This document shows positions 3,085 to 39,088 of a stretch of DNA of 46,014 bases, in pieces. Within the stretch, counting starts at the first letter, position 1, and each line of letters opens with the position of its first letter. The notes under the pieces are model-generated. The model did not search any database and had not been told where the DNA came from. It was given only the letters and a program-made list of their open reading frames with translations. The stretch is from positions 1 to 46,014 of the forward strand of contig NZBQ01000006.1 of NCBI GenBank assembly GCA_002688105.1, in the 5' to 3' direction. A program made the position numbers and the translations under genes. The DNA is from Dehalococcoidales bacterium (GTDB lineage Bacteria > Chloroflexota > Dehalococcoidia > Dehalococcoidales > GCA-2688105).

Positions 3085-3093
3085 AGATTACTT

Positions 3094-3280: not shown

Positions 3281-3366
3281 ATTAAAATCCCAAAACCCGT
3301 TTGTTATCATCACCTATCAATGCTATACTCTGGCATACATCAAAGGCTAGAAGGGAAAACTTTAGT

Positions 3367-4092: not shown

Positions 4093-4095
4093 TAG

Positions 4096-5370: not shown

Positions 5371-5410
5371 GTCTTAGTCGCAGTCTCCTTCTTCTCATGA
5401 CTAAGATAAG

Positions 5411-7108: not shown

Positions 7109-8260
7109 CTAGAACACTACTAAATTATTTCGGTGCACTACTTCCGAGCCATAATCATAGCCAAGCAAGCTGGTAATCTTTCGAGAGTGTGCCCCCTTAA
7201 TAATATCAAGGTCACTGGAGCTATAGTTGGTTATACCACAACCAAGCCTGGTCCCCTGAGGGTCATAGATATTGACTATAGCACCGCGCTGGAATTTACC
7301 CTCAACATGACTGATACCGGCCGCCAGCAGACTTCGGTTCTGCTTTTTCAGTGCCAGAACCGCCCCTGAATCTACTACCAGCTTACCCTTAGTGGAGAGT
7401 CCACTGAGCATCCAGCGCTTCCGACTCTCAAGCCTACTGGTAGACGGCAAAAAACGGGTACCTACCGTCTCACCAGCAACCAGCCGCAAAATAACATTCG
7501 GCTCCCTGCCGTCAGCGACAATTACCGTCACCCCCGAGGCCGTAGCCAGCTTGGCTGCCTCTATCTTGGTAACCATACCTCCGGTGCCCAAATCACTGGG
7601 GGTATGAGCTGCCAGGCGTTCAATCCCCGAATCTATCCGGTCCACCTGCGGAATAAGCCGGGCAGAAGCGTCACGATGCGGGTCAGCCGTATATAGCCCG
7701 GCAGCATCGGTAAGCATTAACAGCAGGTCAGCATAAACCAGATTAGCTACCATAGCTGAAAGGTTATCATTATCACCGAACTTAGCTTCCTGAATCTCAT
7801 CCACCGCTACCACATCATTTTCATTGACGATACATATCACCTGCAGCTCCAGCAAAGCCAGAAGGGTATTGCGAGCATTTAGATAACCAGACCGGTCGGA
7901 AAGGTCAGCCTTGGTAAGTAAAGCTTGAGCTACAGTAATATCATGCTGGCTAAACAATTGCTCATAGACAGACATCAGGCGATTTTGTCCCACTGAAGCC
8001 AGCACCTGCCGCAAAGGAATATCCTTAACCTCCATGGTCAACCCCAGTTTATGCCTGCCCGAGGCTATAGCTCCAGAAGAAACTATAAGCAGTTCCATGT
8101 CCTGCTTTTGGAGCTGTGCCACCTGGGCAACCAAGTGAGACATTATGTCCTGATTCAAGCGGTCGCCACCGCCGGTGAGTAAGCTGGTGCCAAACTTAGC
8201 CACTACGCGGTGATAGGGCGCAACTGAGGGTTTCAGATTAGATTTTCCAATTTTAGCCAT
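7109..8260 (-). CDS. proB: Glutamate 5-kinase with C-terminal PUA domain
   Basis: 383 aa with '[13 protein letters not shown]', 'VSSGAIASG' and '[12 protein letters not shown]', plus a PUA-like C-terminus. Confidence 0.95.
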
Positions 8261-23449: not shown

Positions 23450-23454
23450 AAGTT

Positions 23455-23470
23455 GTTAGGCTGGTCTAAC
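23455..23470 (+). promoter_or_regulatory. Palindromic DtxR/MntR-type operator candidate (site 1)
   Basis: 'GTTAGGCTGGTCTAAC' has inverted arms GTTAG/CTAAC. The 19-mer 23456-23474 matches the DtxR box TWAGGTWAGSCTWACCTWA at 15 of 19 positions by my count. It sits right after the -10 element. Confidence 0.5.
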
Positions 23471-23497
23471 ATTATACCGATGGCAGTGGAGTGGGCA

Positions 23498-23989
23498 ATG
23501 GAAAAAGAACAAAGTGCCAGTATGGAAGATTATCTTGAAGCCATAGCTTTGCTCAGCGAGAGGAATAATGAGGTGAGAGTAACCGAAATCAGCAGGACGC
23601 TGGGAGTGAAGAAGCCCAGTGTTACTTCTGCCCTGACGAAGCTGGCACAAGGAGGACTTCTCAAGCATGAAAGGTATGGACAGGCCAAGCTTACTACCAA
23701 GGGGCAAAGGATAGCTCAGGATGTATTCCACCGCCATGAGACGTTACGCCACTTCCTGACTGAAATATTGAAGGTTGACCCGAAGGTAGCGACCAATGAT
23801 GCCTGCAAGATGGAGCACACTGTCAGCCCGGCTACTCTGGAGAAGCTGGCGAAGTTCGTAGAATTTGTGTTGAACCGACCACAAGGAGAGCCAGATTGGC
23901 TGAAAAACTTTAGTTATTACTTTGAGAACGATGAATTTCCCAGTGAATGTGTAACCAGGTGCCAGAGAGAAACTAGCCAAAAAGAATAA
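23498..23989 (+). CDS. DtxR/MntR-family metal-dependent transcriptional repressor
   Basis: 'SMEDYLEAIALLSERNNEVRVTEISRTLGVKKPSVTSALTKLAQGGLL' (wHTH) followed by a dimerisation domain. The start (23480 or 23498) lies downstream of the predicted promoter, and the TTG at 23453 is unlikely. Confidence 0.85.
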   Translation: MEKEQSASMEDYLEAIALLSERNNEVRVTEISRTLGVKKPSVTSALTKLAQGGLLKHERYGQAKLTTKGQRIAQDVFHRHETLRHFLTEILKVDPKVATNDACKMEHTVSPATLEKLAKFVEFVLNRPQGEPDWLKNFSYYFENDEFPSECVTRCQRETSQKE

Positions 23990-24290: not shown

Positions 24291-24527
24291 ATGAACAATC
24301 ACTGCCTGCCACTGGCCATGACCGCCCCCGGTGAGTTGGTAACGATAAGCGAAATTAGCGCTGGTCCTGGACTACAAAAAAAACTGGCTGATATGGGGTT
24401 TACTCCCGGCGTCCAGATGAGAGTAATAAACGTTCAGGCGCCCGGACCGGTGCTCATCGACCTGAGAGGGTCGAGGGTAGCGCTGGGTCAAGGTATAGCT
24501 CAGAAAATCGCCGTAAAGAAAGTGTGA
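24291..24527 (+). CDS. feoA: FeoA-domain protein (second copy)
   Basis: 78 aa: 'LAMTAPGELVTISEI...KKLADMGFTPGVQMRVINVQAPGPVLIDLRGSRVALGQGIA'. Confidence 0.85.
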   Translation: MNNHCLPLAMTAPGELVTISEISAGPGLQKKLADMGFTPGVQMRVINVQAPGPVLIDLRGSRVALGQGIAQKIAVKKV

Positions 24528-26548
24528 CCATGTCCCCCAAAAAAATAACTATTGCCCTCGTCGGCAATCCCAATTCGGGTAAGACCACCGTGTTCAACAA
24601 TCTGACCGGAGCCCGCCAGCATGTAGGGAATTGGCCCGGGGTCACTGTGGAGAGGAAGGAGGGAAACTGTAGTTATCAAGACTATAACATCAATGCAGTT
24701 GACTTACCGGGTGTCTATAGTCTTACTGCTTATTCCCCCGATGAGGTTATCGCCCGAAATTTCATCGTCAACGAGAAGCCAGAAGTGGTGGTGGACATTG
24801 TTGATGCTTCCAATCTGGAGCGAAATCTTTACCTTACCGTGCAACTAATCGAGTTAGGAGTCAACCTGGTGGTTGCCTTAAACATGACTGACATAGCCAA
24901 ATCACGGGACTACACGATTAATGTTGACAAGCTCTCCGAACTTCTGGGTGCGCCGGTAGTGCCCATGATAGCTTCTCGTAAGAAAGGCACTGAGGAACTG
25001 CTCAAGCAAATAGTAGCTGAGTTTGAAGGTAAAACTAATACCAGCAAGATTAAACTCTACTACGGAAGTGAACTGGAAGAACACATAAACGAGCTAGAGA
25101 CGATTATTTCTGGTGATGAAAAGCTTTCACACCAGTTTCCCCCCAGGTGGCTGGCAATAAAGCTCCTTGAAGAGGATAAGGAGGTGCTCCAGAAGATAAG
25201 GGGGGGGACTATAAGACACGAAGAGATTCTACAAGCTAAGGACAAGAGTATTGCCCACCTCCGGAGTGTTCTGGGTGATGATGCCGAAACGATAATTGCT
25301 GAGGAAAGATATGGTTTCATCAGTGGACTGCTTAAGGATGTTCTGAAAAAGCCGCCTATTGAGCCGCTTACCCCTTCCGATAAGATTGATAAGGTATTGG
25401 TTCACCGCTGGCTGAGTATTCCTATATTCCTGGCACTAATGTATGGGATGTTTCAGTTCGTCTTTACCCTGTCGGTGCCATTTATGGACTGGATTGACGG
25501 ATTCTTTGGCTGGCTGGGAGGATATGTTTCGGGCGTTTCTCCGGGCTGGCTGGGGTCATTACTGGCTGACGGCATCATCGGTGGCGTAGGCTCGGTGCTC
25601 ATCTTTATCCCGCCAATATTCCTGCTATTCATTGCCACTGCCTTCTTAGAGGACTGCGGCTATATGGCTCGGGCTGCCTTCATTATGGACCGGCTGATGC
25701 ACCGAATCGGTCTTCACGGTCGCTCTTTCATTCCCATGATTCTGGGCTTTGGCTGCAATGTCGCAGCGATTATGGCCTGCCGCACCATAGAGGATCCCAA
25801 GGACAGGTTAACCACCATGCTAATAAACCCCTTCATGTCCTGCGGGGCCAGGCTTCCCATCTATGTTCTCCTGGCGAGTGCTTTCTTCACCGCCCACCGG
25901 GGTCTGGTGGTCTTCTCTATGTATCTCATTGGGATTACCGTTGCCATCATTATGGCACTGATACTCCGCAGAAGCATCCTTAAGGGTCCCAGTGGTCACT
26001 TTGTTATGGAACTGCCGCCTTACCGCCTGCCTACTATAACCGGGGTGCTGGTGCATATGTGGGAACGTGGAAGAACGTTCTTAATCAGGGCCGGAACCCG
26101 CATCTTTGGGGTGGTGGTACTGGTCTGGCTGCTGAGTAGCCTGCCCTGGGGCGTGGAGTATGCCAGCGCTGGGAGTGTGATTGGTCGGATTGGTAGCTTT
26201 ATTGCCCCGGTGCTTGCTCCCGCCGGCTTCGACCAGTGGCAGGCAGCAGTCAGCCTTGCTTTCGGTTTCCTAGCCAAGGAGGTGGTAGTCGGCACTATGG
26301 GCGCTATATTTGCCGTTGAAGAAGGCGTTTTAGGTGGTGCTATTGCTACTCAGCTTGGCTGGACGCCACTCATTGCCTTCGCTTTTATGGTCTTCTGCTT
26401 ACTCTATGTCCCGTGTGTTGCCAGCATCGCGACCATCCGGAGTGAAACCAACTCGTGGCGGTGGGCTGGCTTTGCCGCTCTTTACACCATAGTAGTTGCC
26501 TGGATAGCGGCTACCATCGTCTTCCAAATCGGCGGGTTGTTTATATAG
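24524..26548 (+). CDS. feoB: Ferrous iron transporter FeoB
   Basis: G-domain motifs 'GNPNSGKTT', 'DLPG' and 'NMTD', followed by a polytopic membrane domain. The start is GTG 24524 (GTGA overlap with feoA) or ATG 24530. Confidence 0.95.
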   Translation: MTMSPKKITIALVGNPNSGKTTVFNNLTGARQHVGNWPGVTVERKEGNCSYQDYNINAVDLPGVYSLTAYSPDEVIARNFIVNEKPEVVVDIVDASNLERNLYLTVQLIELGVNLVVALNMTDIAKSRDYTINVDKLSELLGAPVVPMIASRKKGTEELLKQIVAEFEGKTNTSKIKLYYGSELEEHINELETIISGDEKLSHQFPPRWLAIKLLEEDKEVLQKIRGGTIRHEEILQAKDKSIAHLRSVLGDDAETIIAEERYGFISGLLKDVLKKPPIEPLTPSDKIDKVLVHRWLSIPIFLALMYGMFQFVFTLSVPFMDWIDGFFGWLGGYVSGVSPGWLGSLLADGIIGGVGSVLIFIPPIFLLFIATAFLEDCGYMARAAFIMDRLMHRIGLHGRSFIPMILGFGCNVAAIMACRTIEDPKDRLTTMLINPFMSCGARLPIYVLLASAFFTAHRGLVVFSMYLIGITVAIIMALILRRSILKGPSGHFVMELPPYRLPTITGVLVHMWERGRTFLIRAGTRIFGVVVLVWLLSSLPWGVEYASAGSVIGRIGSFIAPVLAPAGFDQWQAAVSLAFGFLAKEVVVGTMGAIFAVEEGVLGGAIATQLGWTPLIAFAFMVFCLLYVPCVASIATIRSETNSWRWAGFAALYTIVVAWIAATIVFQIGGLFI

Positions 26549-28848: not shown

Positions 28849-29004
28849 TTAGACCTCTTTACTTAAAATCTTCCTTTTCAGGATTTCCCATTCACTCTTG
28901 GTCAAAACGCAGACGTTGCCCTTCTCGCCTATCTCGACATGCTCGTCAGTGATTTTGACTACGGGACAGCACGAACCCTCTCCACACAATGTGACGATTT
29001 TCAT
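28849..29004 (-). CDS. Small Cys-rich protein (51 aa), below the ORF-track size cutoff
   Basis: Hand translation gives 'MKIVTLCGEGSCCPVVKITDEHVEIGEKGNVCVLTKSEWEILKRKILSKEV'. SD GGAGGTG (complement of 29012-29018) lies 7 nt upstream of the ATG at 29004. The stop is TAA (28849-28851). Confidence 0.55.
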   Translation of the reverse strand: MKIVTLCGEGSCCPVVKITDEHVEIGEKGNVCVLTKSEWEILKRKILSKEV

Positions 29005-29137
29005 CTCTTTCACCTCCTTCCCTTACTATATATTATGCACTATTATGGAATTTTTGAAAAGCCGTAGCCTAAAGCCAAGGCTAATAGACTAACAACCGCC
29101 AGGTAAACAAGCAAAATCTTACCGCCAAATTCCTTCC

Positions 29138-29376
29138 TTAAACCAGGATAGTCCCCCAGCTAGTAATTGGCCCCACTATCAACAGAACCATGCCGGCCCC
29201 GATGTTCATTCCCTGTGATATGAAGCATGAACCAAGGGAACACTGGCTGTGGAGCAAATATACATGACGAGACCAAAGACAAGGCTGAATAGATAGCCCA
29301 AGCCTCTTTCAGATGAGATTAGAATCCTCGGAGAAAAGCTGACAGATTCTTTGCAGGAAATCCTGTTGAGGCGTAA
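29138..29376 (-). pseudogene. C-terminal remnant of a DUF318/ArsP-like permease, frameshifted
   Basis: The minus strand reads '...GLGYLFSLVFGLVMYICSTASVPLVHAS' and then hits TGA (29206-29208). The family motif continues in another frame as 'ISQGMNIGAGMVLLIVGPITSWGTILV*' (stop 29138-29140). No N-terminal part is present. Confidence 0.4.
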
Positions 29377-29635: not shown

Positions 29636-30784
29636 TTAGAACTTAAAACCTGTAGCGATATGTATCGTGCCAGTTGGAGGTGGAAGATATCCTCCCACCA
29701 GCGCCACAACTGTGGCCAAGAGCACCGCTAAAACGAGCCCTCTACTAACCCTCCCCACCCACCTTTTCTCATTTTCTCCAAGTAGCGAATAAAACTTGGC
29801 AATAGCCCACATGACCACGAGGAGAAGAACATAGGAAAGAAGATACCAGCCTAGGTTCATCTTCCACCAGCCTCCAGATAACCAAGTGATGATGTGTGAA
29901 ATTGTAAATAGGTGCGCAACGTAAATAGCTAAGGAAGCCTGGCCCATAGTACTCAAGGGACGGAATGGAAGGCTTAGCCTGCGGTTTTCCAGCCCTATGA
30001 AAAAGCGGAAAATAAGCATACTTGCACCGATAACAAGTGCTAAATACTGAATCGTGGGTGGGTAAAACAGGTCACTCCAGGTGTTCCGGATAAAGGTTGG
30101 GGGATAGGCGAATACAAAGGATAAGCCGCCGAGAACCATTAGAGCAGAGCCAACATACAGTAGTGCTGAAGCGAAAGCTTTGGGTTTTACGCGCTTGAAA
30201 CTTTCGCAAAGCTCTACTCCAATGATTGAGAAAGCAAGCCACGGACAAATAGGGAACCAACCATCGACAAACCAGTGGTTAATTATACCTGTTTGGGGCT
30301 CGACTTCTAGAATAGGCGCGCCAGATAGCAGGTAGAACCCAGTTGGAAAGTAAGTGTAACCGAGTACTTTCTGAAGAATAGGCGTTAGTATCAGAATACA
30401 TAAGGCTGTTGCTACTCGCTGATAGGATTTGAGTTTACAGGTAAGATACGCCAGCGGGATAGAAATTCCTATCAGGTATAAAACTTGTATGGACATCAGG
30501 GGATATATCTGCCAGATTACGATGTCTACGAGTATCCCCACAGAAAAAATCCACGCTCCTTTATTGAACACAAAATAACTGAAACTATGTCTGTCTGCAG
30601 TAAGTGAAACCATGAATCCACTCAGTATGATAAAGAGCGGAGCTGCTAATGAGCCAATCAGTCTGAGGACAAAGGGAGCAGGCTCTGCCAGGACGATAGC
30701 CAATAGGTTCAAAACCATCATCGTAACAATGGCGAATCCCCTTATCATATCTATGTTTCTGTTCCTTTCCAAGCAATTCATCAC
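29636..30784 (-). CDS. Polytopic membrane acyltransferase-like protein (DUF1624 / heparan-alpha-glucosaminide N-acetyltransferase-like)
   Basis: 382 aa with about 10 hydrophobic helices and the N-terminal motif 'RNRNIDMIRGFAIVTMMV'. It is divergent from the 30980 operon. Confidence 0.6.
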   Translation of the reverse strand: MMNCLERNRNIDMIRGFAIVTMMVLNLLAIVLAEPAPFVLRLIGSLAAPLFIILSGFMVSLTADRHSFSYFVFNKGAWIFSVGILVDIVIWQIYPLMSIQVLYLIGISIPLAYLTCKLKSYQRVATALCILILTPILQKVLGYTYFPTGFYLLSGAPILEVEPQTGIINHWFVDGWFPICPWLAFSIIGVELCESFKRVKPKAFASALLYVGSALMVLGGLSFVFAYPPTFIRNTWSDLFYPPTIQYLALVIGASMLIFRFFIGLENRRLSLPFRPLSTMGQASLAIYVAHLFTISHIITWLSGGWWKMNLGWYLLSYVLLLVVMWAIAKFYSLLGENEKRWVGRVSRGLVLAVLLATVVALVGGYLPPPTGTIHIATGFKF

Positions 30785-30915: not shown

Positions 30916-30945
30916 TTGACTTCGCTTTACAAGAACGGCTACAAT
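30916..30945 (+). promoter_or_regulatory. Candidate promoter of the six-gene operon
   Basis: TTGACT (30916-30921), an 18-nt spacer, then TACAAT (30940-30945), about 35 nt upstream of the ATG at 30980. Confidence 0.4.
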
Positions 30946-30979
30946 TCCTTACACGCTTATAAAAGGAGGAAACGGGAAA

Positions 30980-31891
30980 ATGAAAAAATGGCTTTTAGTT
31001 CCTATAGTGGCGGTAATGCTCGGGGTAACACTACTAAGTGGATGCGCAGGCGGTTTAGCTCCCGCAGAGCTTGCTACGGCTCAAAATCGAATTACAGAGC
31101 TAGAAACAAAGGTGGCAGGGCTTGCTACGGATCAAAATCGAATTGCAGAGCTTAATGATCGAATTGCAGAGCTTAATGATCGAATTGCAGAGCTTAAGCC
31201 ACAAGTAGAGAAGCTTTCAGCAATTTCAGCCTACAGTATCTGGTATGACCAGTATTACGCAGTCGGCAACTTTATATTTGAGGATACGGAGGCCTTTAAT
31301 GGAGGGGTTGGTGCCCTTATTGCCGCCGCCGGTGACGCTGCTTCGCAAGCGGCCTGGGAGAACTATCTTGCGACTGATAGTGCTTTCAATGCTGTTGTGG
31401 CCGGATTACCCGAAGACTATGAGGCCTGGACGGAAGACCAAACTAATCAATGGACTGAGGCTTACAACACCCGCTACGCTACTTTTGGTGAGGTAGGTGT
31501 TACCCTGTACGAGGCTACTGACTATTCGGCGTCTCAAATTAGAATTTTGGAACTCGAGACGCAGGTGGCAGACCTTTCGGTGATTTCAGCCTACAATATC
31601 TGGTACGACCAGTACTACGGAATCTACAATTATACATTTGAAGATACTACCACTTTTAATTGGAAGCTGGGAACACTTATCTATGCCACTAATAACGATA
31701 CCGTAATAGGGTACTGGAATTACTATTATGCGGCTGATAGTGCCCTGAACGAGGTTCTGGCCGAATTACCCGAAGATTATGGAACCTGGACTGAAGACCA
31801 AATTAATCAGTGGTCTGAGGCTAACACTGCTCGCTCCGAGGCTCTTGGCTATGTAGGTACCTACCTATTTTATGCTATAGTTGGTTATTAG
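30980..31891 (+). CDS. Lipoprotein with coiled-coil heptads and a duplicated Trp/Tyr/Asp/Glu-rich domain
   Basis: Signal peptide plus lipobox 'VTLLSGC'. Heptads 'NRIAELNDRIAELNDRIAEL'. Two homologous domains of about 100 aa ('ISAYSIWYDQYY...LPEDYEAWTEDQTNQWTEAY' and 'ISAYNIWYDQYY...LPEDYGTWTEDQINQWSEAN'). SD AGGAGG lies upstream. Confidence 0.75.
   Translation: MKKWLLVPIVAVMLGVTLLSGCAGGLAPAELATAQNRITELETKVAGLATDQNRIAELNDRIAELNDRIAELKPQVEKLSAISAYSIWYDQYYAVGNFIFEDTEAFNGGVGALIAAAGDAASQAAWENYLATDSAFNAVVAGLPEDYEAWTEDQTNQWTEAYNTRYATFGEVGVTLYEATDYSASQIRILELETQVADLSVISAYNIWYDQYYGIYNYTFEDTTTFNWKLGTLIYATNNDTVIGYWNYYYAADSALNEVLAELPEDYGTWTEDQINQWSEANTARSEALGYVGTYLFYAIVGY
31139..31197 (+). repeat. 21-bp in-frame tandem repeat (2.8 copies) inside the lipoprotein gene
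   Basis: 'cgaattgcagagcttaatgat' occurs at 31139-31159 and 31160-31180, with a partial copy at 31181-31197. It encodes RIAELND heptads. Confidence 0.9.
31223..31876 (+). repeat. Intragenic direct duplication (two units of about 290 nt, offset 360 nt)
   Basis: 'atttcagcctacagtatctggtatgaccagtattac' (31223) pairs with 'atttcagcctacaatatctggtacgaccagtactac' (31583). 'ttacccgaagactatgaggcctggacggaagaccaaact' pairs with 'ttacccgaagattatggaacctggactgaagaccaaatt'. Confidence 0.85.
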
Positions 31892-31902
31892 GATGGGTAT
31901 GT

Positions 31903-32169
31903 ATGGCTCATACTTCCGATAATTTATATGTAGATGAAAATGGGTTTATTTTTGATTACAAGACCGGACTTACCTATAGTGTAAACTCAACAGGGGTGTT
32001 TATAGTCAGGGAATTACTGGCGGGAACTCCACCATCTGAGCTTACTCACCTCATTAAAAAGAAATATAGTATCAATCACAAAACAGCCGCCAGTGACCTC
32101 AAGGCATTTCTCCAGCAACTTTCTGATGACAACCTGTCTGTGCCTAGCGAGGTTCGAACTGATGATTGA
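31903..32169 (+). CDS. PqqD-family protein (RiPP-recognition-element-like peptide chaperone)
   Basis: 88 aa. 'FDYKTGLTYSVNSTGVFIVRELLAGTPPSELTHLIKKKYSINHKTAASDLKAFLQQLSDDNL' fits the PqqD pattern: a beta-strand, 'LN.T...IW.LLDG', then 'V..D...FL..L...GL'. Confidence 0.7.
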   Translation: MAHTSDNLYVDENGFIFDYKTGLTYSVNSTGVFIVRELLAGTPPSELTHLIKKKYSINHKTAASDLKAFLQQLSDDNLSVPSEVRTDD

Positions 32170-33250
32170 TTGTAATGTAGCCGTTAGTGGACTCAATTCA
32201 ACTGATGACCCAGGAACCGGCATTGCTGTTATTAGAAGTATCAAGGATTCAGGGCAGTGGACTGGAAAAATCATTGGGTTAGCCTATGATGCACTTGATA
32301 CTGGTTTATACGACAAGAACTTACTGGATGAAGTCTATCTCTTGCCCTATCTATTCAACAGTGAGGCACTTTGGCAGAGGCTAAAAGATATAACTCAAAA
32401 AACCAGGATTGATGTCTTAATACCACTCCTGGATTTGGAGCTGCTAAACCTGCCTATTATAGAACCCTCACTGAAAGAACTTGGTATCAACCTATTGCTT
32501 CCTCCGATACATAAAATCAAAACGCATCTTAAGCTGAACCTGGCAGATTTCTGCCAAGAAAACGGCGTTAAATACCCAAGGCAAGATGTCGTTACCCACC
32601 CTGCCTGGATAGCCTCAAGCATTCGGCAGTTAGGCACTCCGGTAGTAGTGAAGGGCGTTGTTCATGGGTCACACATAGCTTATTCCGCCGAGGAAGCCAC
32701 GATTTACTTCAACAGAATCAAACGGCGCAAAGTCTTTGCGGAAATGAGCTGGGGAATACCAGTAATAATACAAGAGTATATATGGGGTGAAGAATATAAT
32801 ATCGACTGTTTGACCGACAGAGAGGGAAAACTAATCGGCGCTGTTGCCATGCGAAAGCTGAGCGTTACTGAGAAGGGTAAGGCATGGTCCGGGGTGACAG
32901 TAAACGATGAGAAATTACTAAGTCTTAGCCAGGAAATCATACGCAAGCTCAGCTGGGTTGGCCCGATAGAACTCGAATTTGTAAAGCAGCAGGGCTCTGG
33001 CGATTATTACCTGCTGGAGATTAACCCCAGATTTGGTACCTGGATATATCTGGCGGCAAATGCCGGTCAGAATTTACCCCTAGCCGCGATTCAAATAGCC
33101 ATGGGGCAGAAGGTTGAACCCTTCCCATCTTACCAGGCAGGACTTATGTTTATTCGCTATAATCTGGATATGATATGTCCGATAGAATATATGGCAAGTC
33201 TGACGGCAACTGGTGAACTAAAGTTAAACGAAGAAAAATCAAGGAGCTAG
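32162..33250 (+). CDS. ATP-grasp ligase (carboxylate-amine ligase type)
   Basis: 'TPVVVKGVVHGSH', 'VIIQEYIWGEEYNIDCL' and 'IELEFVKQQGSGDYYLLEINPRFGTWIYL'. ATG 32162 overlaps the PqqD stop by 8 nt (ATGATTGA); the track N-terminal extension from 32093 is unlikely. Confidence 0.8.
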   Translation: MIDCNVAVSGLNSTDDPGTGIAVIRSIKDSGQWTGKIIGLAYDALDTGLYDKNLLDEVYLLPYLFNSEALWQRLKDITQKTRIDVLIPLLDLELLNLPIIEPSLKELGINLLLPPIHKIKTHLKLNLADFCQENGVKYPRQDVVTHPAWIASSIRQLGTPVVVKGVVHGSHIAYSAEEATIYFNRIKRRKVFAEMSWGIPVIIQEYIWGEEYNIDCLTDREGKLIGAVAMRKLSVTEKGKAWSGVTVNDEKLLSLSQEIIRKLSWVGPIELEFVKQQGSGDYYLLEINPRFGTWIYLAANAGQNLPLAAIQIAMGQKVEPFPSYQAGLMFIRYNLDMICPIEYMASLTATGELKLNEEKSRS

Positions 33251-33254
33251 CTAA

Positions 33255-34649
33255 ATGCACGGCAAACAGAATGAAAAGTATGAGAAGCCGACCCTAACCA
33301 AACATTACCGAGGGTTTATGAACAAGTTTGCTAGGGCTGGCTCTAGCATTCCACATGATACTATTTCTGGAGTCCCGGTAAGGGGACTCGTTGAGCAGTT
33401 TGGTTCTCCCTTGTGGGTAGTTTCCGAAGCCGACCTGCGGGAGAAATATAAAGACCTATATCGAGCCTTTAGTGCGAGATATCCTAAGGTTGCTGTTGCC
33501 TACTCATATAAAACTAATTACTTATCAGGAATTTGCGCCCTACTTCACCAGGAGGGAGCTTGGGCAGAAGTTGTCTCCGGGTTTGAGTATGATATTGCCG
33601 TAAAGCTTGGTGTTCCCGGAGACCAGATAGTCTTCAACGGACCTTACAAGACAAGGGCTGAGCTAGAGAGAGCTATCAAGCAGAAAAGTAAAATAAACAT
33701 TGACTCCTTCCAGGAGATAGATGACCTTGAGAGACTGGCTAAGGAGCTGGGCGAGGTGGTTAAGGTTGGCATCCGTGTTAATATGCAACTTCGCAAAGTT
33801 GACTGGAGCAGGTTCGGTTTCAACTTAGAGTCAGGGCAGGCGATTGATGCCTGTAAGCGGGTTGCTTCTTCAGATAATCTGAGATTATCCGGTCTCCATG
33901 TCCACATGGGTACTTTTATTCTGAATACCAAAACATACCGTGCCCTTGCCGAAAAGCTTTTAGGCTTATATATGGCAATAAAAGATACCCTGAAGGTAGA
34001 AATTGAATATCTGGATGTTGGTGGTGGGTATGCCTCAACCAATACCTTACATTACCACTGGATACCTGGTGAGTACGCTTGCCCCGCCATTGATGAATAT
34101 GCTGAAGCAATATGCTCACCATTAGTTACCGAGCTGAGAAAAATAGCTGACATGCCACTACTTATCATTGAACCCGGGCGTGCCTTAGTTGATGAAGGAA
34201 TGTATCTTATTACTACCGTCGTTTCGTTAAAAGCTCTACTAAACAATTACAAAGGTGTAGTAATTGACGCTGGAGTTAACCTATTACCTACATGTTTTTG
34301 GTACCGTTTTAATATCCGTGCTGCTGAAAGGCCAGCTAGCTTATCTGATGGCGATATGACTAATTTTGTTAATATTTATGGACCACTTTGCATGAACATA
34401 GATTGTATTCAACTCGGCACACACCTGCCATCGGTTACCGCCGGTGATATTCTGGTGATAAGTAATGTGGGGGCATACAATTTTTCACAGTCTATGCAAT
34501 TCATCAGGCCCAGACCAGCAGTCGTTATGATAACCGAGGATGGTGTGGAGTACCTGAGGCTGCCCGAAACTACCGAATATATCTGTCAATTAGAAAGGGT
34601 ACCCGGTCACCTCCTGAAAAAATTTAACTCCGTCCAAAAAGGAAGGTAG
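33255..34649 (+). CDS. PLP-dependent decarboxylase, Orn/DAP/Arg decarboxylase (alanine-racemase fold) family
   Basis: PLP-Lys motif 'VAYSYKTNY', phosphate-binding 'LDVGGGY' and 'IIEPGRALV'. SD AAGGAG lies 8 nt upstream. The gap after the ATP-grasp stop is 4 nt. Confidence 0.85.
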   Translation: MHGKQNEKYEKPTLTKHYRGFMNKFARAGSSIPHDTISGVPVRGLVEQFGSPLWVVSEADLREKYKDLYRAFSARYPKVAVAYSYKTNYLSGICALLHQEGAWAEVVSGFEYDIAVKLGVPGDQIVFNGPYKTRAELERAIKQKSKINIDSFQEIDDLERLAKELGEVVKVGIRVNMQLRKVDWSRFGFNLESGQAIDACKRVASSDNLRLSGLHVHMGTFILNTKTYRALAEKLLGLYMAIKDTLKVEIEYLDVGGGYASTNTLHYHWIPGEYACPAIDEYAEAICSPLVTELRKIADMPLLIIEPGRALVDEGMYLITTVVSLKALLNNYKGVVIDAGVNLLPTCFWYRFNIRAAERPASLSDGDMTNFVNIYGPLCMNIDCIQLGTHLPSVTAGDILVISNVGAYNFSQSMQFIRPRPAVVMITEDGVEYLRLPETTEYICQLERVPGHLLKKFNSVQKGR

Positions 34650-34651
34650 CT

Positions 34652-35707
34652 ATGGAAGAATGGAGAAAGTTTGTAACCCCCCGGGAGCGGGACAACAACT
34701 GGAACGCATTGCTCTCTGGTGGGGCTAAGATACGCTTGCTTGAATCATTTATCGATTTTGAACTCGCTGCCCTTCTTGCCGCCGAGGGTCCTCTGTCCGC
34801 AGAGGCTATCGCCAAAAAACTGGCACTACATCCCCACCGTGCCCGGAAGTGGTTTCACCTTCTCAGTCTAGTTGGACTGGTGCAGGAGATAGTTCCCCCA
34901 GATAAACTTCCTGGTCATGGTGATGAGGTCTATGCCATCACGCCAATGGCACAGTCACTTTTTGGTGATGATGGCAAAAGTGGAGCATTCTATCGTGACC
35001 GGATGCGTTTTTGGCGTAATATAAGTGGGCTTGATTTCAACGCTGTCTTAAGGGGACTACCCCTACCGCTCGCCGTAGAGTGGCCACCACAAACGTTCGA
35101 GGCGGCAACCCATCTGGAATGGTGGATGAGAATAACCGCGCCGGGTGCTATCCAGGCTATAGAGAAGGCCGTAGATTTAAACACCGTAACCAAGATGCTT
35201 GACGCTGGGGGTGGTGATGGAACCATGGCTTGCGCTTTTGCTCAATCTCATCAAAATCTTGATATCACCGTGTTTAATCTGCCTAACTCCGCCTACCTAG
35301 CTCGTAATAAGGTTGCGCAGGAAAAGCTAAGCGATAAAATTACTATAGCTGAAGGGGATTTCTTGAGTGAAGAACCTTTTCCTGGTGGCTTTGAACTGGT
35401 TCTCTGGTCCCGTGTGTTTACTGACTGGGCGGCAGACGTTGTCCAAAGGCTAATAAGAAAGACATATGAAGCGCTTATTCCTGGTGGTCGGATAGCCATT
35501 TGTGAACCACTGCTCGAGAGTAATAAGGATCTGATTACTGAATGGGAGTTCCGCTATATTTTTTACGATGATTTTGGCGTAGCCGTTTTCAAAACAAGAG
35601 CAGTGTATGAACGACTTCTTACCGGAGCTGGCTTTGAATTAACCAGCTTTTCTGACAGGGACGATGAGAGCTGTTACAGCGCAATAATAGCTACCCGACC
35701 CCAATAG
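34652..35707 (+). CDS. SAM-dependent O-methyltransferase, COMT/Methyltransf_2 type with N-terminal winged-helix dimerisation domain
   Basis: SAM motif I 'MLDAGGGDGTMA' and 'ITIAEGDFL', with an N-terminal 'LAALLAAEGPLSAEAIAKKLALHPHRARKWFHLLSLVGLV' wHTH. The gap after the decarboxylase stop is 2 nt. Confidence 0.85.
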   Translation: MEEWRKFVTPRERDNNWNALLSGGAKIRLLESFIDFELAALLAAEGPLSAEAIAKKLALHPHRARKWFHLLSLVGLVQEIVPPDKLPGHGDEVYAITPMAQSLFGDDGKSGAFYRDRMRFWRNISGLDFNAVLRGLPLPLAVEWPPQTFEAATHLEWWMRITAPGAIQAIEKAVDLNTVTKMLDAGGGDGTMACAFAQSHQNLDITVFNLPNSAYLARNKVAQEKLSDKITIAEGDFLSEEPFPGGFELVLWSRVFTDWAADVVQRLIRKTYEALIPGGRIAICEPLLESNKDLITEWEFRYIFYDDFGVAVFKTRAVYERLLTGAGFELTSFSDRDDESCYSAIIATRPQ

Positions 35708-35723
35708 GGATTAACATCTATTC

Positions 35724-37367
35724 ATGTTGAAAGATAAATGGTCCAGGCTTGTTCGAAGTAGTGCACTGGGTAGTTTTATTGACGCCTTACTTCGTGGCTT
35801 CGGTCAAATTGTTTTCTGCAACAATCCTCTTATTGGCTTAATCATACTTATCGGCTTTATAGATAGCCCTATTAGTGGCCTACTAGCCCTTTTGAGCAGC
35901 ACAATAGCCATACTAACCGCCATATTGACCAAGACCGAGCGTTATCTCATCAAATCGGGGTTATTCGGCTGTAGTGGTGCTTTAATTGGTTTTGTTTTTG
36001 CTTTTTACCTGCCGCTGAACTGGCAGCTAATACCCGCATTGGTATTGTCCGGTATCTTGTCCGCTTTGCTGATCAAGCTTCTCATTAGAAATCTATCTAT
36101 CAAGGTCAACCTGCCCGTCCTGAGTATACCTTTCGTCCTTGTTACTTGGTTGGGTCTACTGTCCCTGCGCCACATACCAACTTCTCCCACTATGCTCGAC
36201 AATCTACCTGGGTTTCTTATTAGTGGTCAAATTGAGCAATTGCTAGCCCCTCTTTTGCCAGAATCAATCAGTACCATATTCCACACTATTAGCGCCATCT
36301 TCTTTCAATATAGCGTCTTTATCGGCATGTTATGCCTTTTAGGTCTTATCTTACATTCTAGAATATCTACCGTCTTCGGGATTGCAGGTGGTGTCATAGG
36401 AATAACGTTATTTAGCCTATTCACACCGGGGGGAGAATACGCTAGCAAACTAACGGTCGGTTTTAACTGTGCTCTAATAAGCATAGCTCTCGGAGGCTTC
36501 TTCATCACTCTCACCTGGCAGTCCACACTTTATGCTCTTTTCGCGGTATTTACGGGGGGAGTAGTTGGCATGGCCTTGGTAAATCTTCTAGGCCTGGTTA
36601 ATATCCCAGCCCTAGCCGCTTCATTTAACCTAGTTACTTTACTTTTTTTATTTATACTCGGGAAAGCACCTTCCAAAATCAGCAGCGTTGGACTTAAACT
36701 TGTCCCACTTGCCTGGGTAGATAAACCCGAAACGTATTCTAATTGGAACTTATTAGTGAATATGAAAAGGATAAACCAACAGGTTAGGCTTTCACTCCCG
36801 TTTTACGGTATCTGGTATGTATCACGCGGAAACAATAGAAAGCCTACCCACTCAGGGGCTTCTGCTTATGCCTGGGATTTTATAGTTCTTAATGAGCGTA
36901 AGAAATTATTTAGAGGTACGGGTACTGATAATAAGGATTATTATTCCTTTGGTCTGCCGGTATTGGCACCGGCTCCAGGTAAAGTAGCTAAAGTCACCGA
37001 TTCAGCCCCCGATAATACTCCCCCTATCGCAAATTGGGAACAGAGCTGGGGCAACTATGTAATAATCGACCACGGTAACGACGAATTTAGCGAGATTAGC
37101 CACTTAAAGCAGCATTCTATTGTGGTGAGAGAAGGCGATGAGGTGGACAGGGGGCAGTTGATAGGTAATTGCGGGAATTCAGGACTATCTATGGCATCAC
37201 ATATCCACTATCAACTACAAAAAGCAAGTAGCTTAGGAGCAGATTCGATGCCCGCCAAGTTTCACAATTACAAAATACATAAAAGCTTCACCAAAATCAC
37301 AGTAATGGAGGAAGGAAGACCCAAGGAAAAGGAGCTCGTCTCAAATTCGCTATCTGATGGGTCTTAA
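35724..37367 (+). CDS. Fusion protein: urea-transporter (UT) family channel domain plus C-terminal M23 (LytM-type) metallopeptidase domain
   Basis: The N-terminal roughly 320 aa are polytopic, with the UT-like motif 'LRGFGQIVFCNNPLIGLIILIG'. The C-terminus carries 'THSGASAYAWDF', 'NYVIIDHGNDEFSEISHLK' and 'GNCGNSGLSMASHIHYQL' (M23 H...D, H and HxH elements). Confidence 0.75.
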   Translation: MLKDKWSRLVRSSALGSFIDALLRGFGQIVFCNNPLIGLIILIGFIDSPISGLLALLSSTIAILTAILTKTERYLIKSGLFGCSGALIGFVFAFYLPLNWQLIPALVLSGILSALLIKLLIRNLSIKVNLPVLSIPFVLVTWLGLLSLRHIPTSPTMLDNLPGFLISGQIEQLLAPLLPESISTIFHTISAIFFQYSVFIGMLCLLGLILHSRISTVFGIAGGVIGITLFSLFTPGGEYASKLTVGFNCALISIALGGFFITLTWQSTLYALFAVFTGGVVGMALVNLLGLVNIPALAASFNLVTLLFLFILGKAPSKISSVGLKLVPLAWVDKPETYSNWNLLVNMKRINQQVRLSLPFYGIWYVSRGNNRKPTHSGASAYAWDFIVLNERKKLFRGTGTDNKDYYSFGLPVLAPAPGKVAKVTDSAPDNTPPIANWEQSWGNYVIIDHGNDEFSEISHLKQHSIVVREGDEVDRGQLIGNCGNSGLSMASHIHYQLQKASSLGADSMPAKFHNYKIHKSFTKITVMEEGRPKEKELVSNSLSDGS

Positions 37368-37497: not shown

Positions 37498-37526
37498 TTG
37501 ACACTTTATGTTGACAGTTCTATAGT
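37498..37526 (+). promoter_or_regulatory. Near-consensus sigma-70 promoter in front of the hsdM stub
   Basis: TTGACA (37498-37503), a 17-nt spacer, then TATAGT (37521-37526). SD AAGGAGG (37544-37550) precedes ATG 37557. Confidence 0.55.
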
Positions 37527-37556: not shown

Positions 37557-37745
37557 ATGCCAAACCATAACTCTAGGCTTGAACTCGGCACTCTGGAGAA
37601 CTGGCTGTGGGATGCAGCTTGCGTGATTCGGGGGCCGATAGACGCCCCCAAGTTTAAAGATTACATTCTTCCTCTTGTCTTTCTGAAACGCCTCTCTGAT
37701 GTTTTTGAGGATGAGTTACAGCAGCTTGCCATTCAAGCCCGATGA
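37557..37745 (+). pseudogene. hsdM: N-terminal fragment of a type I restriction-modification methyltransferase (HsdM_N domain only)
   Basis: '[41 protein letters not shown]' is the canonical HsdM N-terminus. The ORF stops after 62 aa, and no methylase core, hsdS or hsdR follows. Confidence 0.7.
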
Positions 37746-37927: not shown

Positions 37928-39088
37928 ATGACAGGCAAAACTATCGTAATCCTGGGGGGTGGTTTCGGTGGCCTGGCCACAGTGCAGCAATTGCGTAGAG
38001 CGCTACCGACCGAGCACCGCGTAGTAGTGGTGGAAAGGCAAAACACCTTCTCTTTGAGCTCCTTCAATATGAGGTTTATGGTTGGAGAGATAAAAGACAG
38101 ACGGGAAGTAGAACGGCCACTTTCTGAATTGGCGAGTAAGGGCATTGAATGGGTGCACGACGAAATCCTGGAATTAGATCCAGCAGCGCGAAGGGTGCGC
38201 ACTTCCTCTGGAACGCTGGAGGGAGACTATCTGATTATCGCTCTGGGCGCTGAAAAAGACGGGAGTGGCATACCTGGCTTTGCCGAATCAGCCTATAACC
38301 TGTATGATGCTAACCAAGCTCTTCTGGTTCACAAGCCCTTGCAGGAATTGGATACTGGGAGAGCTATCGTGCTGGTCTGCCGTAGCCCCTTTTCCTGTCC
38401 GGCGGCTCCTTATGAGGCTGCCTTTCTGATGGACTCGACCTTCCGGAGTAAAGGAAACCGACAGCAGGTGGAGGTAGCCGTTTACACCCCAGAACTGAAG
38501 CCCATGGCCGGCGCTGGCCCAGCGATGGGCGATGCCGTCATTGGTATGCTAAAGGAGCATGATATAAAGTACAACCCACAACAGAAAGTTCAGAGGATAG
38601 AGAGTGGGGACCGCAAGATTGTTTTTGAAGACGGCGAGACTTCTTTCGACTTGCTGGTGGGTATACCGCCCCATACCGTACCAAAGGTAGTACGGGAAGC
38701 TGGCCTAACAGACGAAACGGGCTGGATCCCTGTTGAGATCGATACTCTGGAGACACGTTACCCCAGCGTCTTTGCCATTGGCGATGTGACATCCATTAAG
38801 CAGCCCAACCCCACAGGTCTCTCCCTGCCCAAGGCGGGGGTATTTGCTGATGAGCAGGGCCGTGTGGTAGCGACGAACATAGCGGCTAAACTCAGAGGAG
38901 AAGACAAGTCCAAAAAGTTCGACGGAAAGGGTTTCTGTTACATTGAAGCCGGCGATGGCCAAGCCGCTTACGGTTCCGGTAACTTCTACGGCTATCCTGG
39001 CCCCATTGTATACCTGGAGCCTCCCTCCCAAAAGCTCCACGAAGAGCGGAAAAGGCTCGAACTGGACCAGTTAGAAGAGCTAGTGTGA
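37928..39088 (+). CDS. FAD-dependent pyridine-nucleotide-disulfide oxidoreductase (sulfide:quinone oxidoreductase / NDH-2-like)
   Basis: 'KTIVILGGGFGGLATV' dinucleotide-binding motif, 'VFAIGDV', 386 aa, and a strong SD AAGGAGGGAG. Confidence 0.8.
   Translation: MTGKTIVILGGGFGGLATVQQLRRALPTEHRVVVVERQNTFSLSSFNMRFMVGEIKDRREVERPLSELASKGIEWVHDEILELDPAARRVRTSSGTLEGDYLIIALGAEKDGSGIPGFAESAYNLYDANQALLVHKPLQELDTGRAIVLVCRSPFSCPAAPYEAAFLMDSTFRSKGNRQQVEVAVYTPELKPMAGAGPAMGDAVIGMLKEHDIKYNPQQKVQRIESGDRKIVFEDGETSFDLLVGIPPHTVPKVVREAGLTDETGWIPVEIDTLETRYPSVFAIGDVTSIKQPNPTGLSLPKAGVFADEQGRVVATNIAAKLRGEDKSKKFDGKGFCYIEAGDGQAAYGSGNFYGYPGPIVYLEPPSQKLHEERKRLELDQLEELV

Follow-up and report, generated by a model that had tools for sequence, protein, structure and literature searches.

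The stretch analysed here is 46,014 nucleotides (nt) of contig NZBQ01000006.1 from a Dehalococcoidales bacterium, and it is called the window in its full length. Between positions 30,980 and 37,367 it carries six genes on the + strand, for which a single operon is the best explanation. The core of the operon is the local copy of a widespread, undescribed four-gene cassette. This cassette encodes, in order, a PqqD-family small protein, an ATP-grasp ligase, a decarboxylase dependent on pyridoxal 5'-phosphate (PLP), and a fusion of a urea-transporter (UT)-fold channel with an M23 metallopeptidase, designated UT::M23. The cassette probably marks a hitherto unknown pathway for making and releasing a compound that bears an amine. 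The open reading frames (ORFs) and the two domains of the fusion protein are as follows; RRE stands for the recognition element of peptides that are made by ribosomes and modified after translation (RiPPs).

30980-31891, + strand: clade-specific lipoprotein, 303 amino acids, accessory; lipobox LLSGC (Cys22) and coiled-coil stalk
31903-32169, + strand: PqqD-family small protein of RRE-type fold, 88 amino acids, core gene 1 (PF05402)
32162-33250, + strand: ATP-grasp ligase of the carbamoyl-phosphate-synthase-like branch, 362 amino acids, core gene 2 (ATPgrasp_Ter, 62.0 bits; cut-off 29.1)
33255-34649, + strand: PLP-dependent decarboxylase of the alanine-racemase fold, 464 amino acids, core gene 3 (Pfam and NCBIfam)
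34652-35707, + strand: class I S-adenosylmethionine (SAM) methyltransferase, Methyltransf_2 (COMT-like), 351 amino acids, accessory (PF00891, 72.9 bits; cut-off 22.3)
35724-37367, + strand: UT::M23 fusion, 547 amino acids, core gene 4 (Pfam UT, 192.6 bits; Peptidase_M23, 57.9 bits, cut-off 28.7)
35778-36656, + strand: UT-fold channel domain, amino acids 19-311 (Pfam UT, PF03253)
36801-37238, + strand: M23 metallopeptidase domain, predicted cytoplasmic, about amino acids 360-505 (Peptidase_M23)

An earlier note, made from the letters of the window, had described six same-strand genes with almost no space between them. The coordinates and all of the junctions were reproduced: in order, an 11-nt gap, an 8-nt overlap, and three further gaps (4, 2 and 16 nt). 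The overlap, ATGATTGA at 32162-32169, joins the PqqD and ATP-grasp genes, which are predicted to be translationally coupled. The five domain assignments that the note had made by eye (PqqD, ATP-grasp, decarboxylase, Methyltransf_2, and UT with M23) all scored above the curated Pfam cut-offs, and no NCBIfam equivalog was found for any of the six proteins.

A four-gene core conserved across phyla

The conservation of the genes was surveyed in GTDB, with each species represented by one genome. A relative of the ligase turned up in at least 597 of these genomes. The window proteins were searched against the best 80 of the at least 597 loci and against about 65 others, and synteny was counted over non-redundant loci, using only those that extend far enough. 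In 77 of 78 loci the gene immediately upstream of the ligase gene encodes PqqD, in 72 of 73 the gene immediately downstream encodes the decarboxylase, and in 57 of 60 the UT::M23 fusion comes next. The methyltransferase gene, on the other hand, is present in 2 of 60 GTDB-derived loci. The unit of six genes in the earlier note is accordingly reduced to a conserved core of four (PqqD, ATP-grasp, decarboxylase and UT::M23), and the methyltransferase is an accessory of one lineage.

The cassette is spread over at least seven phyla, with carriers in Bacteroidota, Ignavibacteriota, Chlorobiota, Myxococcota, Planctomycetota, Ca. Neomarinimicrobiota, Ca. Firestonebacteria and Chloroflexi. The Bacteroidota carriers are Flavobacteriaceae, Chitinophagales and Cyclobacteriaceae, and those in Ignavibacteriota include Melioribacteraceae. 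One named, validly described species has the cassette, Algoriphagus marinus (locus L094), and the nearest named relative of its short form is a metagenome-assembled genome (MAG) of Chloroflexi (L095). When 1.84 billion cluster representatives were searched exhaustively with HMMER, 189 ligase relatives were obtained at E <= 1e-30. Among the representatives were a natural PqqD::ATP-grasp fusion protein (P0323, 477 amino acids) and a natural ATP-grasp::decarboxylase fusion protein (P0295, 871 amino acids). Co-conservation of the genes across genomes, which had been set as a test beforehand, was thus borne out by near-invariant synteny over at least seven phyla and by two gene fusions, and a functional link between the genes is supported by these comparisons.

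The cassette occurs in a short and a long form. UT::M23 has about 540-565 amino acids in the short-form lineage, and in the long-form lineages (Bacteroidota, Ignavibacteriota, Myxococcota and Planctomycetota) it is extended at the C-terminus by about 200 amino acids. The long-form lineages add a tetratricopeptide repeat (TPR) protein of about 205 amino acids with a signal-peptide-like N-terminus (49 loci). They also add a protein of 270-450 amino acids whose N-terminus resembles a signal peptide and whose C-terminus, rich in beta-strands and with a hydrophobic end, looks like an outer-membrane barrel. No homologue of the TPR, beta-barrel-like or FG-GAP accessory proteins was found in the window.

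A sister cassette was found in a metagenome scan. Its order is TPR, PqqD, two tandem ATP-grasp copies, decarboxylase and UT::SIR2 (about 550 amino acids), and it is represented by the loci L096 (11541-13217), L097-L111 and L122. The UT::SIR2 fusion was present in 13 of the 13 sister loci that reach that far, and among the HMMER hits about 25 proteins, of about 710-735 amino acids, have two tandem ligase copies. The SIR2 domain is intact, with GAGVS...GLPD, QNVDGLH, the catalytic EIHGS and CxxC...CxxC. No mention of the UT::SIR2 architecture was found in the literature, and the UT plus M23 architecture is listed in PMC12998343 but not studied there.

Several neighbours of the cassette at other loci were recorded. 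In 11 Bacteroidota loci (L058 at 3038-3628, L062, L064, L069, L072, L080 and others) a gene for an AraC-family regulator of about 197 amino acids lies upstream of the cassette. Pfam matched only the AraC helix-turn-helix part of these regulators, and a heavy-metal-associated N-terminus (NMVCDSC, NMVSSRC) was judged by eye. Genes of conflict or mobile type adjoin some cassettes: in the Planctomycetota locus L004 (13370-17080, - strand) a Mrr_cat-NACHT-FGE-sulfatase protein and a Schlafen/AlbA_2 protein border the cassette, and in L001 (12960-13988, - strand) a phage-type integrase does so. In A. marinus a gene of the sodium:neurotransmitter-symporter family (SNF) stands just upstream of the cassette (4029-5687, + strand), at this one locus only; its product might bring an amino-acid or amine substrate into the cell.

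Features of the encoded proteins and of the surrounding DNA

The earlier note had made its reading depend on the membership of the 88-amino-acid protein in the PqqD family. This protein matched PF05402 with 39.0 bits, where the cut-off is 23.4 (E = 1.1e-9; 63 of the 67 profile positions), and the assignment stands; the match to lasso_PqqD_Strm, 40.6 bits, was under the cut-off of 70. Every characterised PqqD/RRE protein, to our knowledge, binds a peptide, and by this analogy a PqqD-type protein would imply a peptide partner here. The searches for a precursor covered ATG-start, locus-encoded, non-hypervariable ORFs of at least 12 amino acids. When the intergenic ORFs of 12-95 amino acids from 90 loci were clustered, only PqqD itself and out-of-frame shadows of coding genes recurred. 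The tiny ATG-start ORFs within 160 nt upstream of PqqD contained no recurrent peptide, only in-frame C-terminal ends of sorting domains of the type IX secretion system (T9SS), and many Ignavibacteriota loci have zero intergenic room upstream. A ribosomal precursor gene in the cluster, the element that defines a RiPP gene cluster, was not found at the 90 loci clustered, and the RiPP reading of the earlier note could not be upheld in this respect. In L086 (4828-5082), L088 (5546-5789) and L089 (1478-1687) a non-coding gap of 210-255 nt separates the lipoprotein gene from the PqqD gene, as compared with 11 nt in the window; the three gaps contain neither a common ORF nor an Rfam match. PqqD was also considered as an amino-group carrier like LysW. 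In about 65 proteins, its C-terminal tail varies in length and sequence (TDD, DDSM, LIEE, GLV, GLA and others), the protein has no conserved lysine, and the nearest folds to the ligase are not RimK or LysX first. This role appears unlikely from these features and was rejected.

The ORF list places the start of the ligase at GTG 32093. The ATG at 32162 is the supported start, because public data contain an identical 362-amino-acid gene product (P0001) and because forty homologues align from that residue. The residues K124, K164, E270, E272, E286, N288 and R290 are invariant, with E-I-N-P-R-F at 286-291, and the ligase keeps the ATP-grasp catalytic set. A confident AlphaFold2 (AF2) model was obtained, with a predicted local distance difference test score (pLDDT) of 90. 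The nearest folds to it were 2pn1, of unknown function, carbamoyl-phosphate synthase (CPS), biotin carboxylases, the L-amino-acid ligase RizA and PurD. The NCBIfam matches were limited to placeholder models named 'carbamoyl phosphate synthase-like'. A graspetide (omega-ester/amide) system was rejected: no graspetide ligase was among the top 50 fold matches, the GRASP_w_spasm score was 16.6 bits against a cut-off of 230, and no precursor was found.

The decarboxylase contains both domains of the group IV ornithine/diaminopimelate/arginine decarboxylases, Orn_Arg_deC_N (PF02784, 123.8 bits) and Orn_DAP_Arg_deC (PF00278, 41.3 bits), together with the PLP lysine and the catalytic cysteine of this group. 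In a sequence search of the PDB the best match was FigC (7kh2), with 203 bits, followed by diaminopimelate (DAP) decarboxylases (LysA) at 160 bits or less and BtrK at 87-88. K86 (YSYKTN) and C379 (GPLCMN) align with the PLP lysine K63 and the catalytic cysteine C354 of FigC. T327, Y331, C354, M355 and Y383 of FigC are kept in the window enzyme, which has I382 and Q412 at the positions of the citrate-binding H357 and R387. In an alignment to 1tuf the R-x3-Y element of DAP decarboxylase corresponds to P345...W349 of the window enzyme, and Pro345 stands at what we take to be the place of the DAP-binding Arg. This Arg binds the distal carboxylate of DAP (PMC7857480). Because the citrate- and DAP-binding residues are replaced, the distal group of the substrate is predicted to be neither citrate nor a free DAP end. 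The scores against the LysA equivalog TIGR01048 (254.3 bits; cut-off 297.9) and the N-citrylornithine decarboxylase FslC/FigC model NF041039 (242.2 bits; cut-off 500) were below the cut-offs. FigC belongs to a polyamine-unrelated clade with SbnH, AcsE, MccE, BtrK, the DAP decarboxylases and D-ornithine decarboxylase, and FigC, SbnH, AcsE, MccE and BtrK all act on an amino acid that is conjugated through its side chain (PMC7857480). The order of ligation and then decarboxylation, which the earlier note had suggested, fits a decarboxylase that is closest to FigC and belongs to a clade with BtrK, SbnH and MccE (PMC7857480).

The AF2 model of UT::M23 had a pLDDT of 91.5. Its target-normalised template-modelling (TM) scores to dvUT and UT-B were 0.81-0.86, and the UT domain is, as modelled, a true UT fold. 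The score against the urea-transporter equivalog TIGR03441 was 145.6 bits with a cut-off of 274.6, and the pore residue F80 of dvUT aligns with Cys83 of the window protein, at a position that is variable in the family. In the M23 domain H376, D385, H450, H460, H493 and H495 are invariant, and the IDHG, SHL and HxH elements are kept. Both termini of the solved UT channels are cytoplasmic. The domain fused to the C-terminal end of UT should face the cytoplasm, because SIR2 needs NAD+. A cytoplasmic M23 domain is predicted for the window protein, in agreement with the absence of a hydrophobic segment after residue 316 and with the lysine plus arginine count, 13 on the side of the two termini and 1 on the other side of the UT fold. 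Such a location is out of the ordinary, as every M23 protein matching the model either acts on the cell wall or is associated with it. M23 enzymes break the amides of peptides and cross-bridges by hydrolysis, and sirtuins strip acyl groups from lysine epsilon-amines. The exchange of M23 for SIR2 on the same channel module therefore suggests that the fused domain cleaves amides of a peptide or protein, as a release or eraser step. The earlier note had proposed export, import or release by the channel/peptidase; the M23 domain is taken here as a predicted cytoplasmic release or eraser amidase and not as a wall hydrolase.

The methyltransferase has the SAM-binding motif DAGGGDG at 184-190 and a weak match to the dimerisation domain. 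Its nearest solved relatives, DsyB, SibL and DnrK (about 65-71 bits), are S-, C- and O-methyltransferases, so the family does not tell which atom is methylated. The gene is in line with the cassette in L086, L087, L089, L146 and the contig of P0029. It is a truncated remnant in L001 and is missing in L088, and in the Chloroflexi locus L095 a divergently transcribed orthologue with 40% identity over the full length lies next to PqqD. The co-occurrence in two gene orders argues that the link to the cassette is functional but lineage-specific.

The lipoprotein contains two copies of an aromatic and acidic domain of about 105 amino acids each, which are 53% identical, and has no real Pfam match. 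The family forms 16 clusters among 5.8 billion proteins. It is syntenic with the cassette in L086, L087, L088, L089, L093 and L146, and L095 has no lipoprotein gene. The C-termini of the cassette-linked members differ (GY, ISG, IVK). Single-domain paralogues are encoded away from any cassette in L090 (2579-3733) and L092 (2313-3392), each paired with a proline-rich secreted protein between genes of ATP-binding cassette (ABC) transporters that include a FecCD-type permease. The domain may bind a ligand at the cell surface.

The features of the window outside the six genes that bear on the operon are these:

29636-30784, - strand: integral-membrane acyltransferase, Acyl_transf_3/HGSNAT_cat, 382 amino acids, divergent (Pfam)
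30916-30945, + strand: promoter-like site TTGACT-18 nt-TACAAT (consensus scan, 10 of 12 positions matched)
30963-30969, + strand: Shine-Dalgarno sequence AAGGAGG, read directly, ten bases ahead of the first ATG
37557-37745, + strand: HsdM N-terminal fragment, 62 amino acids (HsdM_N, E = 3.7e-13)

The divergent membrane acyltransferase-like gene of the earlier note was confirmed by Pfam. A homologue is found in the same divergent position in L086 and L088, and six other loci have a distant relative close to the cassette, five times downstream on the same strand and once upstream on the opposite strand. In L146 and L095 the acyltransferase gene does not adjoin the cassette. It is a probable accessory gene.

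The candidate promoter that the note had placed at 30916-30945 is present as a sequence. It is weak evidence by itself, because such sites are common in the region: the scan of 9.5 kb gave 25 of them as compared with 15.9 +/- 4.0 in shuffles. The note had also described the operon as more AT-rich by eye than its flanks and as bracketed by decayed genes, which to it suggested an acquired island. The composition difference is real but modest, with a G+C content of 0.450 in the operon and 0.491 in the rest of the window, and a G+C content at third codon positions of 0.37-0.47 in the operon genes as compared with 0.40-0.66. As for the decayed genes, the hsdM stub was confirmed. It consists of the N-terminal domain only of a type I restriction methylase, is followed by short ORFs, and has the look of a restriction-modification gene in decay. 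On the other side, the 'permease tail' at 29138-29376 had no family match in the profile search and was not confirmed. The support for an island amounts to a 4-point dip in G+C and one gene stub, by which a recent acquisition is not proven.

Other observations were made around the operon. A strong promoter-like site (37498-37526, 11 of 12 matches) is located near the HsdM fragment. Downstream of it lies a gene for a pyridine-nucleotide-disulfide oxidoreductase (37928-39088, + strand), whose best NCBIfam match is the selenoprotein subtype of type III sulfide:quinone reductase with 205 bits, well under the cut-off of 525. An ORF of 54 amino acids with a CGEGSCC motif and no family match (28849-29013, - strand) sits in a 1.3-kb region that contains no ORF of more than 65 amino acids, between fdhD and the acyltransferase gene. 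The context in the window is chromosomal housekeeping, with mfd, proAB, gdhA, fabK, ispH, nadA, fdhD, feoB and an AcsV-like gene. A gene for an iron-dependent repressor of the DtxR/IdeR type (23453-23989, + strand) adjoins feoB (24524-26548, + strand); the two lie 5-7 kb upstream of the operon. A scan of the whole window gave no DtxR-box-like site, and regulation of the operon by iron was rejected in spite of these neighbours.

No Rfam match was obtained in the window, nor in 28 other loci apart from L001. In L001, whose ligase is 68% identical to that of the window, a c-di-GMP-II (cyclic di-GMP) riboswitch aptamer (RF01786, 65 bits) is located at 7114-7198 (+ strand) in the 5' region of the cassette operon. 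A second RF01786 aptamer (5820-5737, - strand, 60 bits) lies in the same locus ahead of two DUF2269-like membrane genes, and an nhmmer search found no further copies. A riboswitch as a clue to a ligand was rejected, as Rfam gave only the c-di-GMP-II aptamers of L001. Membership in an anti-phage defence system was also rejected. In PADLOC, the PqqD protein, ligase, decarboxylase, UT::M23, lipoprotein and acyltransferase had no match, and the matches were limited to a generic methyltransferase hit and the hsdM fragment.

A possible tethered route and its alternatives

We tentatively favour a route of tethered ligation, decarboxylation, methylation in this lineage, and cleavage at the channel, and we rate it at somewhat short of an even chance. 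The order of the genes, their domains, their conservation, the gene fusions and the exchange of M23 for SIR2 are observed; in this scheme we infer the substrate, the type of bond, the order of the steps and the export through the pore. The PqqD protein would hold a segment of a peptide or protein for the ligase, which would use ATP to link an amino acid to it as an amide through the side chain, leaving the alpha-amino and alpha-carboxyl groups free. The decarboxylase would then take off the alpha-carboxylate to give a terminal primary amine, and in this lineage the methyltransferase would methylate the product. On the cytoplasmic side, where the UT pore opens, the membrane-anchored M23 domain would cut the amide of the tether, and a small product or by-product would exit through the pore. 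The lipoprotein and the acyltransferase would be lineage-specific extracytoplasmic additions, whose role may be to capture the product or to modify it once it is outside. Two ligases in tandem, as in the sister cassette, fit a further round of ligation following the decarboxylation, as in butirosin and rhizoferrin.

Several points weigh against the tethered route. A peptide substrate was not found, the sole small ORF conserved across the loci being PqqD itself. The nearest folds to the ligase are small-molecule enzymes, and not the peptide-modifying MdnC, RimK and LysX. UT pores are very narrow, and F80 of dvUT is Cys83 here. The secreted TPR and beta-barrel-like proteins added by the diderm lineages suggest a product larger than pore size. 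The first M23 motif is non-canonical, H376-x8-D385 instead of HxxxD, and the canonical sirtuin reaction yields O-acyl-ADP-ribose and not a free acid.

The strongest alternative, which we nevertheless consider unlikely, is a pathway for a free small molecule, of the type of the siderophores made independently of nonribosomal peptide synthetases (NIS siderophores) or of the tabtoxin/dipeptide type. The ATP-grasp enzyme, perhaps acting twice, would take a free amino acid and couple its side chain to a small carboxylic acid, and the decarboxylase would trim the conjugate, as with FigA/FigC; PqqD would be a structural or activating subunit, and M23 a maturation or self-protection peptidase. The ligase folds agree with this alternative, since the nearest are small-molecule ligases and carboxylases including RizA. 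It also agrees with the work of FigC, the closest characterised relative of the decarboxylase, on a free conjugate, with the failure to find a precursor gene at the loci searched, and with the tandem ligases, which suit a scheme of two ligations. The AraC regulators of the eleven Bacteroidota loci, with their heavy-metal-like N-terminus (MxCxxC-like, by eye), and the lipoprotein paralogues beside the FecCD-type ABC transporter genes point the same way. On the other hand, PqqD is near invariant (77 of 78), translationally coupled and even fused to the ligase, and the characterised PqqD/RRE proteins bind peptides. M23 and SIR2 both act on amides of peptides or proteins, the window enzyme has not kept the residues by which FigC binds citrate, a TonB-dependent receptor is absent from the loci, and no DtxR box was found in the window.

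The exchange of M23 for SIR2 on the same UT module could instead reflect a reversible protein modification, which we regard as rather improbable. Here the ligase and the decarboxylase would write an aminoacyl-derived mark, for example a gamma-aminobutyryl-like one, on a lysine of a cellular protein whose segment PqqD holds, and M23 or SIR2 would erase it, possibly gated by UT. The canonical SIR2 reaction is the deacylation of N-epsilon-lysine, which counts for such a mark. A dedicated precursor gene would be unnecessary, and the c-di-GMP-II riboswitch ahead of the operon of one relative would be a regulatory context. Against this, the neighbourhood holds no conserved candidate target, and a methyltransferase of the small-molecule type is an odd partner. 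The secreted TPR protein, the beta-barrel partners, the lipoprotein and Acyl_transf_3 point to something that leaves the cell.

Little credence is given to a secreted protein as the substrate, either the co-transcribed lipoprotein or, in other lineages, a different co-transcribed one, with PqqD reading its signal peptide or terminus and the tailoring taking place before export. Signal-peptide-bearing RiPP precursors offer a comparison, and in several lineages a gene for a secreted protein does lie directly upstream of PqqD. In the clade of the window it is the lipoprotein gene; in about 25 Ignavibacteriota/Chlorobiota loci its product is an FG-GAP protein that carries a T9SS sorting domain, and in Planctomycetota, Neomarinimicrobiota and one unclassified MAG it is a repeat protein that contains Cys. 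There is no relationship between these proteins, however, and Bacteroidota and Myxococcota loci hold regulators or housekeeping genes at that position. The lipoprotein, which the earlier note had named as the only obvious candidate substrate, proved a poor one: its family has the 16 clusters given above, its C-terminus varies, single-domain paralogues lie apart from any cassette, L095 has no such gene, and unrelated genes stand upstream in other phyla.

Remodelling of the envelope or peptidoglycan is very improbable. It would take M23 as a periplasmic wall endopeptidase, with the ligase and the decarboxylase altering stem-peptide precursors, for instance a bound diaminopimelate at its free D-centre. 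In its favour, the characterised M23 proteins among the model's matches all act on the wall or are associated with it. The decarboxylase, too, is similar to DAP decarboxylase (254 bits) and has no Arg for a distal free carboxylate, as expected if the distal end is peptide-linked. This alternative is opposed by the lack of a transmembrane segment between UT and M23, by the 13:1 lysine plus arginine bias, which puts both termini in the cytoplasm, and by the NAD+-dependent SIR2 at the equivalent position in the sister cassette. It would also leave the peptide-binding PqqD and the UT pore without a role.

Only a very slim chance is allowed to an iterative version, in which cycles of the ligase and the decarboxylase would add Glu or Asp through the side-chain carboxyl to a terminal amine and, by loss of the alpha-carboxylate, regenerate such an amine each time. 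A side-chain-free polyamide ('natural nylon'), such as poly-gamma-aminobutyrate or poly-beta-alanine, would then grow on a peptide primer held by PqqD. An M23 of the glycyl-glycine type, or SIR2, would trim or release the chain, an amide-selective UT pore would thread it across the inner membrane, and the TPR and barrel proteins would carry the matrix polymer across the outer membrane. The hints are circumstantial: the tandem ligases of the sister cassette, the resemblance of the TPR and beta-barrel genes to partners of synthase-dependent exopolymer secretion, the Acyl_transf_3 family, which is known to modify extracytoplasmic polymers, and the c-di-GMP-II riboswitch ahead of the operon of one relative. 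Finally, a chance juxtaposition of unrelated genes in an acquired island, to which the slightly lower G+C content and the adjacent hsdM fragment might point, is refuted by the near-invariant synteny across at least seven phyla and by the natural gene fusions.

The gene set, found in at least about 600 species-level genomes of at least seven phyla, including common aquatic and soil Bacteroidota, has no assigned function. Its mixture is unusual, combining a peptide-recognition protein of the RiPP type and the ligate-then-decarboxylate chemistry of butirosin, NIS siderophores and microcin C with a fusion of the urea-channel fold. If the tethered route is true, the UT fold would work outside urea transport, with cleavage coupled to exit by a passive pore, and a new route to amine-bearing metabolites or protein marks would be added. 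The current names 'carbamoyl-phosphate synthase large subunit', 'diaminopimelate decarboxylase' and 'urea transporter' are misleading.

Comparison with known systems

No description of the cassette was found in the literature. The statement of the earlier note that it knew of no characterised pathway with this combination agrees with this result, as none was found there.

A close parallel in logic to the tethered route is butirosin biosynthesis by BtrI, BtrJ and BtrK (with BtrG). An ATP-grasp enzyme puts glutamate on a carrier, a PLP enzyme like DAP decarboxylase decarboxylates the tethered residue, the ligase acts again, and the protecting group is cleaved later; BtrK is a detectable relative of the window enzyme (87-88 bits). 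The carrier of butirosin, however, is a phosphopantetheinyl acyl carrier protein (ACP) with a thioester, whereas the cassette has PqqD, no ACP, and release by a channel-linked M23 or SIR2, and the window decarboxylase is closer to FigC than to BtrK. In the NIS-siderophore pathways of FigC/FslC (rhizoferrin), SbnH and AcsE, a side-chain conjugation is also followed by decarboxylation to an amine (PMC7857480), and FigC is the best match with 203 bits. Their ligase, in contrast, is an NIS synthetase of the IucA/IucC type and not an ATP-grasp enzyme, they have no PqqD, peptidase or UT domain, and H357 and R387 of FigC are Ile and Gln in the window enzyme.

A precedent for a peptide-borne substrate is microcin C (MccD and the N-terminal domain of MccE), whose decarboxylase belongs to the same clade (PMC7857480). 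It differs in that the tether is made by a SAM-dependent transferase and not by an ATP-grasp ligase, the cluster itself contains the gene of the precursor MccA, and a pump of the major facilitator superfamily performs the export. In microcin C a tethered 3-amino-3-carboxypropyl group is converted to aminopropyl on a ribosomal peptide conjugate. Tabtoxin biosynthesis brings together a homologue of DAP decarboxylase, an ATP-grasp ligase for amino acids and a zinc peptidase (TabA, TabS and TabP), but it has neither PqqD nor UT, and its peptidase is periplasmic and of another family. In the scaffold-peptide ('pearlin') pathways for 3-thiaglutamate and ammosamide, and with FzmZ of fosfazinomycin, a molecule derived from an amino acid is built on the end of a ribosomal scaffold that RiPP machinery recognises, and is released by a protease (PMC13622209). 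There, the attachment is performed by tRNA-dependent peptide aminoacyl-tRNA ligases (PEARLs) or by asparagine-synthetase-like enzymes, and the scaffold gene is in the cluster, whereas none was found for the cassette.

The last step of the route has two partial counterparts. The peptidase-containing ABC transporters (PCATs) of double-glycine RiPPs and bacteriocins are similar in logic only, as a cytoplasmic peptidase fused to an exporter with coupling of cleavage to export, but they combine a C39 cysteine peptidase with an ABC transporter in place of M23 or SIR2 with a passive channel of UT fold. The urea channels dvUT, UT-B and UT-A share the fold of the UT domain (TM scores as above, at 22-28% identity), with the GQxxF and NPL-type motifs kept. 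The window protein differs from them in scoring below the equivalog cut-off, in Cys83 for F80, in its fusion to an enzyme and in its place inside a biosynthetic operon.

With no ACP, NIS synthetase, PEARL, C39 peptidase or ABC transporter, and no precursor gene found at the loci searched, the cassette is not a member of any of the systems compared. The chemistry of tailoring a tethered amino acid has precedents among them; the combination of genes and the amidase fused to a channel are without precedent.

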